IMG/VR virus record: IMGVR_UViG_2609459797_000006
Strand: one strand, 5' to 3'
Source of the DNA: a virus
Lineage: Duplodnaviria > Heunggongvirae > Uroviricota > Caudoviricetes
Length of the DNA stretch: 8,190 nucleotides
Each line of letters begins with the position of its first letter. Position 1 is the first letter of the stretch. Under the pieces are notes generated by a model. It was not told where the DNA came from, searched no databases, and worked only from the letters and a program-made list of their open reading frames with translations. Positions 1 through 7,142 of this stretch are shown here, one piece after another. A program made the translations under genes and the position numbers.

Positions 1-237
1 CTGTCACCCTTTGACGTGGTGATATGGATGACGGATGGCTGGCCGCTGTATGAATCCCGCCTGAAGGGAAAGCTGCACGTAATCAGCAAGCGATATACGC
101 AGCGAATTGAGCGGCATAACCTGAATCTGAGGCAGCACCTGGCACGGCTGGGACGGAAGTCGCTGTCGTTCTCAAAATCGGTGGAGCTGCATGACAAAGT
201 CATCGGGCATTATCTGAACATAAAACACTATCAATAA
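1..237 (+). CDS. insB: IS1 transposase InsB, C-terminal part (5' end lies outside the window)
   Basis: Open frame runs from nt 1 to the TAA at 235-237; the listed 73-aa ORF (16-237) is only the part after an internal Met. Sequence recognised as InsB. Confidence 0.88.
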
Positions 238-252
238 GTTGGAGTCATTACC
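1..252 (+). mobile_element. IS1 insertion sequence, right-hand ~250 bp (element continues left of the window)
   Basis: Frame 1 from nt 1 reads ...[78 protein letters not shown], which I recognise as the InsB C-terminus. The segment ends with ...CTATCAATAAGTTGGAGTCATTACC (228-252), the reverse complement of the IS1 terminal repeat GGTAATGACTCCAACTTATTGATAG. Recalled from memory, not searched. Confidence 0.88.
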
Positions 253-2536: not shown

Positions 2537-2727
2537 TTTGTCTCTCCCATGTGCAGCTCGGCGATTAATGCCCGGTGAATTTCCTGATTAAAATCACACG
2601 CAATAGAAATCAGATTCAGCAGCGTTTCTGAACATTCAGCAGAGGCTTTTTCCAGGATGGTTTCGTAAAGTGATGAAGCCAGCGCTGATTTATATTCGGC
2701 CTGCTCCAGACAGATTGGCTCACGCAT
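2533..2727 (-). CDS. Small hypothetical protein (64 aa)
   Basis: ATG at 2725-2727 preceded by a strong AGGAGG Shine-Dalgarno at ~6 nt; the start overlaps the stop of the upstream ORF (ATGCGTGA). No family recognised. Confidence 0.6.
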
Positions 2728-2911
2728 AGCGAACCTCCTGAACTGGTAGACGGCCAGCGCATACCATCACGCAGCCAGCCGGTGATTGCTCACGGGCTTC
2801 GCGCTCAGTGTTAGCTGTGATGTGAATGACGTTGCGACCGATGGCGCTCAGTGCAAGAAAACGCCAGATGTAGGACTTCCGCCCTTGCGGGTGTGTGATA
2901 TGATCTTTCAT
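2720..2911 (-). CDS. Small hypothetical protein (63 aa; [18 protein letters not shown]...), first gene of the minus-strand operon leading to the helicase/primase
   Basis: Chosen start is the ATG at 2909-2911 with GAGG 6-9 nt upstream. The listed 324-aa ORF (2720-3694) extends this frame upstream across the opposite-strand RHH gene and looks spurious there. An alternative ATG at 2996-2998 lacks a Shine-Dalgarno. Confidence 0.45.
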
Positions 2912-2999
2912 AGCTGCCTCGTTACTTTCGCTAACGGTGGTGGTTAGAGGCCCGGTTAGTGTTCCACCACTGCCGGGCTTTGCTTTACTAAAAGTCATG

Positions 3000-3057
3000 C
3001 AATGTAGTACATTGTCAACTCCACTACAGACTAGACCACAGGAGTTGACAATGTCAA
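3000..3057. promoter_or_regulatory. Divergent promoter/operator region with nested palindromes built on TTGACA/TGTCAA half-sites
   Basis: Seen directly: perfect 15-bp palindrome CAATGTAGTACATTG (3000-3014); perfect 13-bp inverted repeat CATTGTCAACTCC (3010-3022) / GGAGTTGACAATG (3041-3053) with an 18-bp spacer; palindrome TTGACA-A-TGTCAA (3045-3057) spanning the RHH start codon. Lies between divergent genes. Confidence 0.55.
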
Positions 3058-3224
3058 CAAGCGAAAATAAAGAGCGCCATGTTGTGCAGCTCAGACTCGA
3101 TAAAGAACTGTCAGAGCGGCTCGCTTTAGCGATGAAAGAAGACGGTGACGATAATAAGTCGGGATGGATAAAACGCCTTTTGCGCCGTGAACTTGATAAG
3201 CGCGGCATCGAGCCAAAAGGCTGA
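3051..3224 (+). CDS. Small ribbon-helix-helix (CopG/Arc/Mnt-like) DNA-binding protein, 57 aa; candidate repressor of the divergent replication operon
   Basis: ATG at 3051 preceded by AGGAG (3042-3046). Sequence [50 protein letters not shown] has a beta-strand-then-two-helices layout typical of RHH proteins. Fold inferred from sequence pattern only. Confidence 0.55.
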
Positions 3225-3543
3225 ACAGGGTTACTCCCCGTAATGCTGTGGACTGCCCCTCTTAAAAAGGGTCTGTTTTGCGCAACTATTAATGAGTTGT
3301 GCAGAGGCTCCCCTCTTAAAGAGGGTTGGTTATCTTCGCAGCTCTCTACGTTTTTCGTCGGAGCCTCTAAACCACGTTTAACGTTGTTTTGCCATGAACC
3401 CGAATACTGTTCGCCTTTGTCTCGATCTCCGTACGTTAAACGTACGCGGTTAATTTGTGCGTACGGATTTCGTCGGCTCAAGGTTTGACCACCAGCGGCA
3501 AGCCTGGTAATCTGGCGATGTTTCTGTAAAGCGGTATTGCACT

Positions 3544-3571
3544 GGCGGCCCGGCATGGCCGCCTTTGTTTT
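3544..3571 (+). terminator. Rho-independent terminator on the plus strand (GGCGGCC-CGGCAT-GGCCGCC followed by TTTGTTTT)
   Basis: Perfect 7-bp GC stem with 6-nt loop and T-rich tail, seen directly. Sits ~320 nt downstream of the RHH stop and just outside the 3' end of the convergent 230-aa gene. Confidence 0.55.
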
Positions 3572-3576
3572 GCCTG

Positions 3577-4269
3577 TCATACAATAGCCTCCACTTTCAG
3601 CCCGCCAGCGGTATACCCCTGAACCCGAACACCATCGACGCGATGACGCTTTTTCGTCAGAAAGCGGATGTGATCTGCGTAGACGTACTGCCATTTACCA
3701 TCGAGTGCCACACGTTTAAACCACGGATGAGGCTTAGATATGGTCTGGACAACTGGCGCGGAAGCCTTGCAGGGCGTGGGTTCTGCTGTGCATACCCCCT
3801 TATCGTTACCCGTTACTCTATACAGCCAGTAACTTGCCAGCTTCCCGGTCAATTTACGGGTGCGCACGGGGATATAACCCGCCTCACGCATCGCCTTACC
3901 AAAAGTGGCATCGTCCGGGTAATACTGGCGGCGTAGTTCCGTAGATACTGAAACGGCAAAGCTGCGTTTAGTCGGGTATTCCTGCCACTGGCCGACAAAT
4001 TCAAAAGGAAGACCATTAACCCTTCCTTTGGTCTTGTCCTTGCCGCTTATCCCTACATCATGGTCTGCCTCATGCACGGACACGCCGGAACGCAGCCACA
4101 CCAGCCCGTTACCGTTGTGGCGCAACCCCAGATCGGCAAGCGTAAATTCACCGCGATTAATGGGCGACCAGTCACCGGAAATAACCTGTTTACGGTTCGC
4201 TGAAATATCGTGCTGGCTGGCTACAGGGTGAGCGAATCCCTGCCCGTGGAGGGCATTAATCTTTTTCAT
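3577..4269 (-). CDS. Hypothetical protein, 230 aa, encoded immediately downstream of the AlpA-like gene
   Basis: Uninterrupted ORF with ATG start 20 nt downstream of the alpA-like stop. No catalytic motif recognised; family not assignable by eye. Confidence 0.65.
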
Positions 4270-4289
4270 CTCAGATTACCTGTGGTTAA

Positions 4290-4574
4290 TTAAGCAGATT
4301 TACGGCTGTATGGGTTATTGACGTTCTCTACTGCTGGCGGATTACGAACCCACCAGAGCACATCCGAAAGAAGCCAAGCACAGCTATTGCGGCCAAAGTG
4401 ACAGCGCGGAGGGAAGCGCCCCTGCTGCTCCATCTTCCAGCGGCTGGAACGGGAAAGACTGGTGATCTCGCTGCATTCATCTTCACGGATTCGGCGATCA
4501 AACTTAAAGCCGTACTCTTCTAAAAGGGTGCGGCGCTGTTCAGGATTTGGCGGGGTAAAGGTTATATTTTGCAT
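4290..4574 (-). CDS. AlpA/Vis-family phage regulatory protein (MerR-type HTH; transcriptional activator/excision regulator), 94 aa
   Basis: GGAGG Shine-Dalgarno 5-6 nt before the ATG at 4572-4574. Region ...SEITSLSRSSRWKMEQQGRFPPRCHFGRNSCAWLLSDVLWWVRN matches the AlpA pattern (LSRST-Y...G-FP....G...W...-V--W). The family includes E. coli CP4-57 AlpA and P4 Vis, recalled from memory. Confidence 0.75.
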   Translation of the reverse strand: MQNITFTPPNPEQRRTLLEEYGFKFDRRIREDECSEITSLSRSSRWKMEQQGRFPPRCHFGRNSCAWLLSDVLWWVRNPPAVENVNNPYSRKSA

Positions 4575-4623
4575 GCTGCCTCCACTGTTTCAATGTTATG
4601 CGAAGAGATTAGTGGATAAACGA

Positions 4624-4699
4624 CCAGAATTTCCATTGATTCTGGAATCCTTTAAAAGAACATGCAATTCCATTGAAAGATAGAAATTCCATCAAGATA
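4624..4699. promoter_or_regulatory. Repeat motifs upstream of the alpA-like gene: inverted repeat CCAGAAT-N8-ATTCTGG and three copies of TTCCATYRA
   Basis: Seen directly: CCAGAAT 4624-4630 / ATTCTGG 4639-4645; TTCCATTGA 4631-4639 and 4668-4676; TTCCATCAA 4691-4699. Lie 50-125 bp upstream of the alpA-like start. Function inferred. Confidence 0.35.
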
Positions 4700-4830
4700 A
4701 CGCTCCCCTGTTTAAAACAGTTTCCACAGTAATTTCAACGGCTGTCTCGAGAGAAAAAATCATGAATTTCAATAACTCGCCGAAGATCACCGTTCTTTAA
4801 CGATTTGATTCACCTTGGATTGTTCATAAC

Positions 4831-5030
4831 AAAGATGAACAATGATGAACGCTGATGAACAGTGATGAATAACCATGAACAAAGATGGAAAAAGTTAGCA
4901 AGTAATGACCTAGTAGGGACCGTGGATGGAGCTAGGTATTGTTAGGTGCTGTCGGGTGCCGTTACGTGTCATAACGTGTCATTACGTGTCGTTGAATGCT
5001 GTTGAATGCTGTTGAATGCTGTTGAATGTA
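4831..5030. repeat. Array of twenty phased 10-bp tandem repeat units in successive sub-families (ATGAAC-type x6, GGTGCT-type x3, TTACGTGTC x3, GTTGAATGCT x4), followed by very AT-rich DNA (5031-5164); candidate replication origin or protein-binding array
   Basis: Seen directly: 4831-4890 aaagatgaac/aatgatgaac/gctgatgaac/agtgatgaat/aaccatgaac/aaagatggaa; 4931-4960 gctaggtatt/gttaggtgct/gtcgggtgcc; 4961-4990 gttacgtgtc/ataacgtgtc/attacgtgtc; 4991-5030 gttgaatgct x3 then gttgaatgta. Strict 10-bp register throughout. No ORF present. Confidence 0.8.
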
Positions 5031-5164
5031 ACGGTAATACACATCAAATATAACAATTGAATCTCCTTGGCGATCATAGAATCGCCAAAAGCTCCAACAA
5101 ATATAATTAATTAGTATTTTCACATGAAATATAAATAATACCTACTAACACTGCAAAATAATAT

Positions 5165-5815
5165 TCATTCCGTATAATAAATCGAATTTAATGCCTTTCG
5201 AATTTTCTCATATATTGCTGATTTAGATAATCCAGTTTTAGATATACCTTCCTCATCAGCTAATTTATATAGTTCGTTTAAAATAGCCGAGATGCTTGGT
5301 TTTTTAGAGGTGCCAAACGAATGGCCTATCTTATGTGCTATAAGCTTGACCAGCATCCCCATTAATTTATCATTATATTCCTTTTCATCTTCTTTACGAT
5401 GCAAGCCGCGTTTGCTGCTTTTCAATGCAATTCCGACCTGTAAAAGCTCATCCCCTCCCATAGCATAAAGATGCTCTTTTCCTTTGTTTTGATTAGCAAT
5501 TATAGCCACCGCCGCAAGGCATCTGTCCTTTATGGGTTGTGGTGTAATATCTTCATCAATAAGAGGATATGCCAGAGCAAACATATAGTCTGCGGGATAG
5601 GCTGTTGAGTTTCCACCTCGAAATAATTTAGATGCTGATAACCATCTACTCAGTTGTCGATAGTATATATTGTAAGCTTCAACTTTCGCTTCAGGGATAT
5701 CAGCAGTTTTAACTGTCGGATCTACCCCACACATAAGTAGTGCAAGTTGTTTAATATTTAGCTCCGGGGCTTTGGCTTCTCGCTCGAAAATACCCAATTT
5801 TAGAAAACTAGTCAT
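5165..5815 (-). CDS. Hypothetical protein, 216 aa, AT-rich, translationally coupled to the integrase (TAATG overlap); possible C-terminal HTH
   Basis: ATG at 5813-5815 overlaps the integrase stop TAA (5815-5817). Base composition visibly more AT-rich than flanking genes. C-terminal segment ISKTGLSKSAIYEKIRKA resembles a helix-turn-helix. No known family recognised. Confidence 0.7.
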   Translation of the reverse strand: MTSFLKLGIFEREAKAPELNIKQLALLMCGVDPTVKTADIPEAKVEAYNIYYRQLSRWLSASKLFRGGNSTAYPADYMFALAYPLIDEDITPQPIKDRCLAAVAIIANQNKGKEHLYAMGGDELLQVGIALKSSKRGLHRKEDEKEYNDKLMGMLVKLIAHKIGHSFGTSKKPSISAILNELYKLADEEGISKTGLSKSAIYEKIRKALNSIYYTE

Positions 5816-7035
5816 TATTCAGCCTTATTCAACAAAACAATGTTAGTGAATCCACCTGATAAAATATCAAGTCTGTCATACCATTTATTCAACGCATCCA
5901 GTTTCTCAGGCAAGTACAGACTACGGTTATAAATCGCCATGACTCCCGGCATTGAGTGCCCCAGCAACTGTTCGACAACGTGTGGTGCTATACCCATATT
6001 ATTCATATGCGTTGCTAAAGTTCGTCTTAGATCGTGCAGTGTCCATGGTTCAGAATGCCCTAGCTTTTTATAAACGCCGCGGCCCCACTGACTTACCGCT
6101 TCACTGCCTTTAACCGACCCAAGCAAAAGGCCGGATCGTTTCGTTTCATCATGCAGTATTTCAATGAATTTGCGCATGGCATCCGGCACAGGTCTTACAA
6201 TCTTCTCGCCACCCTTGCTGTGCTCTTTGGGAACTGTCCAGACCCAGGCATCCATATCCCATTCACTCCACTCTGATAGCCTGGCCTCCTGCGTTCGGCA
6301 CCCAAACACTATTAAGATTGTCAGTAGCCTGGTGTAGTAAGGCATGAAGCAAGTGCCAGAGGAAATGGCAGCCCATAAATCGCCAGCCTCTTTATCGTTT
6401 AATACCCGGTCTTTTTTTGCCTGTTTTTTACCGACATCTGGAATTGTTAAATCTTCAAGCGCGGTACTCACAGCATAGCGACGAACCCGGCAGAATTTCA
6501 GGGCTTGTTTGCACATCTGGAACACATAACCTGCGGCGACTGGAGTTTTCTTTTTCATCCTGTCAAAGCAGTCAAGCCAGTATCGTGTTTCACAGTCAGC
6601 GAGCGCCATTTTCCCTATATAAGGATAAATGTGTTTTCGCAGCTCCGCTTTGTGCCGTTCAACATTCGCGCGGTTCTCTTCTGCATATTCGCGTATCCAG
6701 TATTCTATAGCTTCCTTAACAGTGACCGGTTTAAGGGTTTCCTGAGTAGTCAACGCCAACTGGTGCTTTGGATCTTTACCTGAGGCCAGCCACTGGCGGC
6801 ATTTATCACGCGATGAACGGGCTTCTTTGAGGCTCATATCCGGGTATCGTCCCAGAGTCAGACGATGCAGCTTCTGCCCGTCAAGTCGGTAAGTAAACAC
6901 CCAGCTAATACCACCAGCTTTAGTTACCTTGGCGCTCAGCCCGGCACCATCAGCATAGAACTCAATCTTACTGGCCGGGATACCATGTAATCCCTTTAAC
7001 TTCCTGTCGCTCAGTTTGTTAAGTTCCCCAGCCAT
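5815..7035 (-). CDS. int: P4-type tyrosine integrase (site-specific recombinase), 406 aa
   Basis: N-terminal segment (SDRKLKGL...KIEFYADGAGLSAKVTKAGGISWVFTYRLDGQKLHRLTLGRYPDMSLKEAR) matches the P4-integrase arm-binding domain pattern. C-terminal region carries HDLRRT (His-x-x-Arg) and GHSMPGVMAIYNRS (catalytic Tyr). ATG at 7033-7035. Confidence 0.9.
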   Translation of the reverse strand: MAGELNKLSDRKLKGLHGIPASKIEFYADGAGLSAKVTKAGGISWVFTYRLDGQKLHRLTLGRYPDMSLKEARSSRDKCRQWLASGKDPKHQLALTTQETLKPVTVKEAIEYWIREYAEENRANVERHKAELRKHIYPYIGKMALADCETRYWLDCFDRMKKKTPVAAGYVFQMCKQALKFCRVRRYAVSTALEDLTIPDVGKKQAKKDRVLNDKEAGDLWAAISSGTCFMPYYTRLLTILIVFGCRTQEARLSEWSEWDMDAWVWTVPKEHSKGGEKIVRPVPDAMRKFIEILHDETKRSGLLLGSVKGSEAVSQWGRGVYKKLGHSEPWTLHDLRRTLATHMNNMGIAPHVVEQLLGHSMPGVMAIYNRSLYLPEKLDALNKWYDRLDILSGGFTNIVLLNKAE

Positions 7036-7053
7036 AGACCACCCAGCCCAAAG

Positions 7054-7142
7054 TGTTTATACAAATGTTTATACAGAATTGCTTGCATAATAGCATAAAC
7101 AAAGAAAAACACTGGAACAATATACAGGCATGAATTTATACA
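7054..7142. promoter_or_regulatory. Integrase upstream region with direct repeats TGTTTATACA (7054-7063, 7066-7075) plus TATACAG (7121-7127) and TTTATACA (7135-7142); candidate int promoter elements and/or arm-type Int-binding sites
   Basis: Repeats seen directly. On the minus strand they read TGTATAAAC, resembling extended -10 elements 20-40 bp upstream of the int start. Their position between int and the element end is where P4-type arm sites are expected. Function inferred. Confidence 0.4.

Follow-up and report, generated by a model that had tools for sequence, protein, structure and literature searches.

A helically phased, copy-number-variable repeat array upstream of alpA as a candidate operator track in a capsid-forming phage-inducible chromosomal island

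Operators arranged in arrays phased by one helical turn are well known; at ompF, for example, the winged-helix response regulator OmpR occupies tandem 10-bp half-sites (F1-F2-F3). Here we analyze an array of 10-bp units in an 8,190-nucleotide stretch of viral DNA (IMG/VR record IMGVR_UViG_2609459797_000006; hereafter the window, at its full length), where it lies within a 590-bp spacer (4575-5164) between the gene for a 216-amino-acid (216-aa) protein and alpA of a phage-inducible chromosomal island (PICI), 246 bp upstream of alpA. Gram-negative PICIs are activated by AlpA, whose transcription is in turn switched on by a helper phage (PMC6092414, PMC11773190). In these islands neither the route of this induction nor a resident repressor is known (PMC6092414). 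In the satellite P4, the helper protein P2 Cox binds at least six cox-boxes, 10-11 bases apart, upstream of the promoter PLL and so activates the satellite; Cox is a filament-forming winged-helix protein, and its left-handed filament wraps DNA (PMC3936717). Directionality factors such as Apl use direct repeats one turn apart and at least three adjacent operators, bend DNA and recognize sequence loosely (PMC7498355). We suggest, tentatively and with slightly less than even confidence, that the window array is a distal, helically phased operator track that controls the alpA promoter and is not a replication element.

The 10-bp periodicity claimed in a first-pass annotation of the region from 4821 onward is evident: self-identity at a lag of 10 bases is 0.605 over 4821-5040, against a maximum of 0.41 over lags 2-40 in 2000 shuffles, and is 0.495, 0.463, and 0.422 at lags 20, 30, and 40. 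The top lag-10-scoring 200-bp windows of the entire 8190-bp window all fall within the array region, and Tandem Repeats Finder places period-10 arrays at three sites (4828-4887, 4964-4990, and 4991-5028). The four sub-families of six, three, three, and four units are present where they had been described, all on the minus (gene) strand. The first (4831-4890) has six GATGAAC-type units, GTTCATCNNN on the gene strand and NNNGATGAAC on the plus strand, with a TTCAT core; at the alpA-proximal edge of the array an inverted copy of its first unit, TGTTCATAAC, lies on the plus strand at 4821-4830 and forms an inverted-repeat pair with it, which includes the TGTTCAT noted earlier at 4821-4827. The second (4931-4960) has three GYTAGGTGCT-like units that read GCTAGGTATT, GTTAGGTGCT, and GTCGGGTGCC on the plus strand, the third (4961-4990) three ACGTGTC-type units NTTACGTGTC, and the fourth (4991-5030) four units GTTGAATGCT, the last of which reads GTTGAATGTA. 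The earlier picture of twenty consecutive units in perfect register does not hold, because about four units at 4891-4930 have decayed and are nearly devoid of lag-10 signal (over 4888-4945, lag-10 identity is 0.33 and lag-11 identity 0.47). The structure is therefore two arrays (4828-4890 and 4931-5030) around about 40 degenerate bases, and phase across this gap is not readable from the sequence.

By analogy, the P4 cox-box array would be the closest known counterpart. Both arrays consist of tandem 10-bp direct repeats upstream of the first gene of an early operon, the product of which belongs to the AlpA/Vis family. In the P4 record (NC_001609) the repeats upstream of vis are annotated as 'ori type 2 repeats' (9176-9205) and comprise three tandem 10-bp units, CCACTTAAAG TCATTTAAAG CCACTTAAAG; because these units contain the P2 cox-box consensus (TTAAAGTCA, TTAAAGCCA), the label hides a helper-sensing element. 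The two arrays also differ: P4 has three annotated units of one kind, whereas the window has about 20 units in four sub-families with copy-number polymorphism, its units lack the cox-box consensus, and it travels with a 216-aa gene that is absent from P4. The operators of Apl in coliphage 186 and the arrays of lambda Xis, P2 Cox, and P4 Vis are likewise one-turn direct repeats at an early promoter, and the window sub-families have six, three, three, and four units (1-10 in relatives), in line with the Apl-type minimum of three adjacent like sites. Those arrays, however, comprise 5-7 sites with a single consensus and have a mirrored counterpart at att, whereas the window array is much longer and more heterogeneous, and no one-turn array of the same units was found at its att region. 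Although the first-pass annotation knew of no described element with such a layout, phased one-turn operators are thus familiar; what we did not find described are the many homogenized sub-families and the copy-number polymorphism of a phased array.

The one-turn period is conserved across the family of elements that carry the 216-aa gene. We scored 13 non-redundant spacers (6.4 kb) downstream of 216-aa homologs from Klebsiella/Enterobacter, E. coli, Yersinia, Proteus, Providencia, Rahnella, Brenneria, Pectobacterium, Serratia, two Xenorhabdus, Edaphovirga, and one metagenome, using a repeat detector open to periods 5-15. It found 22 period-10 arrays (945 bases), two period-9 arrays and no other period, in 12 of the 13 spacers; for the Brenneria spacer, with weak unscored repeats only, the detector reported no array. 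In the 126 kb of flanking DNA from the same loci there were zero period-10 arrays. Because the period is 10 (rarely 9) in 12 of 13 diverged spacers and absent from the neighboring DNA, this preference would need selection on the helical repeat; its conservation argues against neutral slippage, which has no reason to prefer one helical turn. The unit sequences themselves are unrelated between species, apart from a recurrent TTCAT on the gene strand (37 occurrences in the distal spacers, with eight on the other strand; shuffle mean 10.7, maximum 24), and the window GATGAAC block is this conserved TTCAT sub-family seen on the plus strand. A one-turn period kept across Enterobacterales while the units turn over, together with copy-number variation within populations, is an unusual pattern. 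The most elaborate relative is a Serratia sp. element (3655-4385 of its locus), in which a 731-bp spacer holds four separate period-10 arrays with unrelated units (CAACAGACCC, GAAGGTATTC, GTTRRTGCCA, and TTGTACCCAT, followed by GTTTCAT units).

The arrays are co-inherited with the 216-aa gene. In every 216-aa homolog examined the order is int, the homolog, a long spacer (283-731 bp), and alpA, whereas relatives with another gene between int and alpA have spacers of just 95-138 bp with neither arrays nor the TGGAAT boxes described below. One such relative, L004, has an alpA region that is 89.6% identical in DNA to that of the window and yet has a short spacer without an array. As relatives without the 216-aa gene lack arrays, even where alpA is as similar as this, the arrays are, on this comparison, linked to the 216-aa gene and not to alpA. 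The array could serve as a marker of this regulatory type and as a typing locus.

The window spacer is 97.8% identical to that of vB_KppS-Ant (deposited as 'Escherichia phage vB_KppS-Ant'), a 16.5-kb induced element with int, alpA, and primase genes together with its own capsid, portal, head-tail connector, and terminase genes. Taking a capsid-forming PICI as an element with int, alpA, primase, and its own capsid, portal, connector, and terminase genes within about 15 kb, we class the window element by this near-identity as a capsid-forming PICI, close to KpCIDSM30104. The same spacer is also found in K. pneumoniae ATCC 13883, which we take to be the type strain also known as DSM 30104, as well as in Enterobacter hormaechei and six E. 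coli genomes, and integration adjoins yhdJ. KpCIDSM30104 is a studied island hosted by K. pneumoniae DSM 30104, and the same island has been described across Klebsiella, Enterobacter, and E. coli (bioRxiv 10.1101/2025.02.11.637232).

Among 15 near-identical elements (the window, E. coli, Klebsiella, and Enterobacter genomes, vB_KppS-Ant, and nine viral contigs), array length varies between 199 and 279 bp and changes only in 10-bp steps, so the array that the first-pass annotation had proposed to check for conservation is variable in whole 10-bp units. ACGTGTC units number 1-6 and GTTGAATGCT units 3-10, and the middle unit of sub-family 2 is present as three identical copies in one relative (L099); the GATGAAC (TTCAT) block has invariably six units and the decayed center is also constant. 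The array is non-coding, as most of the length differences (10-80 bp) are not multiples of three.

Such variation could also arise if the array were a tolerated minisatellite, expanding by slippage in a little-constrained spacer where only the spacing of the flanks matters and whole-turn insertions are filtered for. The hypervariability of the perfect repeats in near-identical elements, the decay of the oldest part, and the lack of conservation of unit sequences between species all fit this account. It leaves unexplained why period 10 (rarely 9) recurs in 12 of 13 diverged spacers when 126 kb of nearby DNA has no period-10 array, why TTCAT is conserved and strand-specific, and why the six-unit TTCAT block is constant in the 15 relatives. 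A pure spacing filter also fits poorly, because with an in vivo helical repeat above 10 bp eight extra units would lose phase. We consider this account improbable.

The spacer contains further conserved elements between the array and alpA. An integration host factor (IHF) consensus, AATCAAATCGTTA, lies on the minus strand at 4798-4810, between the array and the promoter boxes. Nine IHF sites were found in the 13 related spacers against 0.70 expected (shuffle maximum 4), distributed over eight of them, and eight of the nine sit between arrays and boxes, the exception being a second site in Providencia. Just upstream of alpA, four minus-strand TGGAAT/TGGAAA boxes (4630-4635, 4643-4648 in inverted orientation, 4667-4672, and 4686-4691) include a palindrome of the type ATTCCAG-N5-CTGGAAT, which overlaps the likely core promoter, and form a putative operator and core promoter of alpA (4630-4691). 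The position of these boxes is kept across the 216-aa family. In the direction of transcription the cassette thus runs from the 216-aa gene through a 3' hairpin, the phased arrays, the IHF site, and the boxes, which overlap a weak predicted promoter, to alpA. A scan of 4400-5400 for promoter and terminator consensus sequences gave counts at chance level. A sigma-54 promoter behind this arrangement of upstream activating sites and IHF was rejected by eye, as there is no consistent GG-N10-GC spacing in the box region. The hairpin itself (TTGGCGAT-N6-ATCGCCAA, 5067-5088) follows the stop codon of the 216-aa gene and is the probable 3' end of the int/216-aa transcript, because GC-rich hairpins hold the same place in relatives. 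A scan of the entire window with Rfam covariance models found nothing in 4575-5164 at E values up to 1. A perfect palindrome, CTGTTTAAAACAG, lies at 4708-4720, between the IHF site and the boxes, and the Proteus spacer has a 16-bp palindrome in LexA-box format, CTGTTTGTTCAAACAG.

The 216-aa protein is conserved across Enterobacterales at 51-76% identity. Searches against Pfam, PHROGs, and PADLOC gave only an unnamed PHROG (phrog_30524) and no recognized domain, no structural neighbor was recognized, and a profile search of 1.8 billion representatives returned a small family of 46 members, all of about 210-240 aa, with no informative relatives. Its predicted structure is all-alpha: one helix spans 52 residues, and the C-terminus forms a helix pair (predicted local distance difference test score 83). 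The C-terminal part has sub-threshold matches to the helix-turn-helix regions of Phage_AlpA and SpoIIID. In the putative C-terminal recognition helix, (I/V)Y is replaced by (I/L)D in Proteus, Providencia, and Pectobacterium, and alongside this Y-to-D change the boxes in these genera become TAGAAA/TGGAAA. This co-variation of helix and boxes is suggestive. We infer that the 216-aa protein, which is co-inherited with the arrays, is their likeliest binder.

In the mechanism that we propose, a cassette between int and alpA, restricted to one sub-group of capsid-forming PICIs, would set the threshold for firing of alpA, the island's master activator. Helix-turn-helix monomers would line up head to tail on runs of at least three like units, with one monomer bound per helical turn; bending of the DNA by IHF would then bring the loaded track into contact with protein or RNA polymerase at the boxes. 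Replication slippage would add or remove whole units, the 10-bp steps keeping the sites on the same face of the helix, and the track would work much as the cox-box array does upstream of vis and PLL in P4. The sub-families of three, three, four, and six copies fit a minimum of about three adjacent sites. Cooperative sites on one DNA face, possibly occupied by the 216-aa or the AlpA-like protein, had been suggested from the window alone; this remains the best reading and is strengthened because the 10-bp period is conserved across the family. The comparisons show the anatomy, the conserved period, the co-inheritance, the copy-number polymorphism, and the absence of coupling to the origin; protein binding, the identity of the binder, and the sign of its effect are inferred. 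The cassette of 216-aa protein, phased arrays, IHF site, and boxes sits where the helper-sensing decision is made.

Several observations weigh against this operator track. The copy number of the perfect repeats varies so widely among near-identical elements (1-6 and 3-10) that the exact unit number appears to be under no tight constraint, and much of the array could be tolerated slippage. A single protein would be required to recognize several unrelated 10-mers, unless the TTCAT units alone are true sites and all other units are expansions that have been tolerated. The TGGAAT box motif is missing from the array units, the co-variation of helix and boxes is confounded by phylogeny and by co-varying AlpA, and a relative at the E. 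coli gcd site holds just three 9-bp units and no TTCAT.

The P4 precedent raises the possibility that the binder is supplied by helper phages, with each sub-family acting as a landing site for the Cox/Apl/Xis-type filament former of a different helper, which would polymerize on at least three repeats one turn apart and then switch on the alpA promoter, as P2 Cox does at P4 PLL. The precedent occupies the same relative position (PMC3936717), alpA is helper-induced (PMC6092414, PMC11773190), the sub-families, with 3-6 units each, reach the three adjacent operators that directionality factors need as a minimum (PMC7498355), and unit sequences are species-specific; several sub-families would let one island answer several helpers, and the same island resides in Klebsiella, Enterobacter, and E. 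coli (bioRxiv 10.1101/2025.02.11.637232). Such a sensor would nevertheless leave unexplained why arrays are restricted to elements with the 216-aa gene. Nor are P2-type cox-boxes enriched: the consensus TTAAA(G/C)NC(A/C) has no match in the window spacer and one in the 13 spacers against 1.35 expected, with two matches in the P4 control. When four-unit queries were compared by BLAST with 50,697 phage records, the only deposited phage with the unit arrays was the satellite itself, and a search of viral contigs for 2-3 tandem copies of each unit gave mostly chance or coding repeats (period 9 or 12) together with nine island relatives, although both searches have low sensitivity for degenerate operators. 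We regard helper-specific landing sites as unlikely. An extended form, in which the array would be a modular multi-helper sensor, slippage tuning its sensitivity and the gain or loss of sub-families retargeting the island, with the 216-aa protein as a resident repressor at the TGGAAT boxes that filaments displace, we regard as decidedly unlikely; were it true, a Gram-negative PICI would have its 'missing' master repressor in this protein. The close relative KpCIDSM30104 is genetically tractable and moves between genera, which makes the helper-sensing question directly testable.

AlpA, as a Vis/Xis-type protein, might instead polymerize on the repeats itself and regulate its own expression positively, in the way that Apl, Cox, and Vis work at early promoters of their own. 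In other PICIs AlpA activates its own promoter (PMC6092414, PMC11773190), and the int-proximal attP arm contains four TTCAT motifs, a pattern to be expected if a directionality factor binds at att as well as at the promoter (PMC7498355). These motifs, however, are 26-29 bp apart and not one turn, and they are conserved with integrase type, independently of the arrays. Elements whose AlpA proteins are 87-89% identical (L009, L020) have quite different units or, in Brenneria, weak unscored ones, and L004 shows that an element with a similar alpA region can lack the array altogether. Autoregulation by AlpA through these repeats therefore seems improbable to us.

A host response regulator would be another candidate binder, since proteins of the OmpR/PhoB family act on tandem 10-11-bp repeats and a two-component system could gate alpA in this way. 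The TorR boxes at torC read CTGTTCATAT (boxes 1, 2, and 4) and CCGTTCATCC (box 3) (PMC9239176). Like the OmpR and TorR sites, the window array is made up of degenerate 10-bp direct repeats that adjoin one another and precede a promoter, and its TTCAT core resembles CTGTTCATAT: three array positions lie within two mismatches of it, GTTCAT is locally enriched, and TTCAT is conserved across genera, as might be expected for a conserved host factor. Just three of the 16 matches in the window (at most two mismatches; 8.1 expected), however, lie within the array, the resemblance concerns a 5-6-base core, and neither the other sub-families, which make up most of the window units, nor the units of other species fit. 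Response-regulator sites also do not explain why the array is tied to a gene of the mobile element, the 216-aa gene, and we consider this explanation very improbable. LexA control of the array was likewise rejected; the only match of CTGT-N8-ACAG type, at 5019-5034, has one mismatch and is at chance frequency.

Phased bends, too, classically show a 10-bp period, and the region consists of AT-rich foreign DNA, so we considered whether the array might be intrinsically curved or bendable DNA, or a nucleation site for H-NS, without sequence-specific binding. Curvature, which the first-pass annotation had put forward for prediction, was calculated with a wedge model of rough parameters: the end-to-end ratio of the array (0.90) does not set it apart from shuffles (0.927 +/- 0.045), and the predicted peak lies at 5050-5150, outside the array. 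Within 27 representative units A/T is not concentrated in phase (amplitude 0.148, against 0.145 when positions are shuffled). These results make an account based on DNA shape alone highly improbable.

The first-pass annotation had read the array and the iteron cluster as consistent with a P4-type ori/crr pair, and in its strongest form this would make the array a second replication site, at which the primase-helicase binds the GATGAAC units and the adjacent AT-rich tract melts. Some features favor this. With P4 alpha the primase-helicase shares 51% identity, which extends to the C-terminal part, and the iteron beside its gene is the P4 type 1 octamer TGTTCACC; in P4 about 4.5-5 kb separate crr from the ori, which is located upstream of vis, a topology and distance similar to those of the window. 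The claimed likeness of the array to the iterons proved thin: two array units lie one mismatch away from TGTTCACC, but these are the only such positions, there is no exact iteron in the array, and exact GATGAACA occurs only twice. P4 has exact type 1 octamers at both sites, in both orientations and with irregular spacing, whereas the window array has none and is strictly tandem. In a full-text search, published texts containing TGTTCACC were primer lists only.

Natural comparisons speak more directly. An exact copy of an element's own primase iteron was sought in the spacers of eight related elements and found in none of them. In Enterobacter hormaechei B17-3 the array is the same and the 216-aa protein is identical, but the primase is of another allele, its iterons are GGTAGACA, and TGTTCACC occurs nowhere in the locus; the array is thus not coupled to the origin. 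The TTCAT core likewise recurs in relatives, among them some with TTGTCGGT or CTGTGCACC iterons, so that TTCAT arrays accompany unrelated iterons, and the array is missing altogether from relatives with homologous primases. The Enterobacter hormaechei island (14030-14400 of its locus) combines the other primase allele and GGTAGACA iterons with the same int/216-aa/array/alpA module, which indicates that replication and regulation modules have been exchanged between islands.

The window also has a better candidate for the origin. Gram-negative PICI origins consist of two iteron sets flanking AT-rich DNA directly downstream of pri-rep (PMC6092414). This layout is present after the primase gene in the window, where GGTGAACA/TGTTCACC-type iterons cluster at 280-380 (four exact copies against 0.14 expected), and at 11720-11950 in L003, and it is complete in vB_KppS-Ant. 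The array has no such layout, as it sits upstream of alpA, 4.5 kb from the iteron cluster, and shares no iteron with it. The right end of an IS1 element, with a DDE_Tnp_IS1 match and a terminal inverted repeat at 230-252, occupies window positions 1-252; it has inserted into the origin behind the primase gene and cuts the iteron cluster short. Because of this insertion, and because six TGTTCACC-type iterons are left against about fourteen in two sets in vB_KppS-Ant, the origin of the window copy is probably crippled. An AT-rich tract does follow the array, with 27.6% G+C at 5031-5164, but the tract is the 3' untranslated tail of the 216-aa gene on the minus strand and not a discrete unwinding element, because low G+C runs on into the 3' part of that gene (0.26 at 5101-5300) and the tract also holds the gene's 3' hairpin. 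By these comparisons the ori/crr reading is largely refuted, and replication from the array appears to us highly improbable, as the DNA-shape account does.

All island genes of the window are carried on the minus strand, in the order integrase, 216-aa gene, spacer, alpA, further small genes, primase-helicase, and iterons. The tyrosine integrase, with an arm-binding domain, is encoded at 5815-7035 and the all-alpha 216-aa protein at 5165-5815. The first gene of the early operon, alpA (4290-4574), encodes a 94-aa Phage_AlpA family protein that is 31% identical to P4 Vis, and the primase-helicase gene lies at 390-2159, its identity to P4 alpha extending over 449 residues of the helicase and C-terminal parts. 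A 324-aa protein (2720-3694, minus strand) has no Pfam match; over its C-terminal 85 residues it matches PHROG families that carry a transcriptional-repressor annotation.

Direct repeats TGTATAAACA, spaced by 12 bp, occur in both attP arms (7049-7075 in the window; 4850-4872 and 5083-5105 in L003). They are probably the arm-type sites of the integrase, because they change with integrase type in relatives. Integrase arm sites were rejected as an explanation of the array, since these repeats lie beside the att core and their variation follows the integrase, not the array. Upstream of int, in its minus-strand promoter region, a LexA-box-like sequence, CTGTATATTGTTCCAG, lies at 7112-7127. Its conservation in the Proteus, Rahnella, Brenneria, and Yersinia relatives is a hint that int may be under SOS control.

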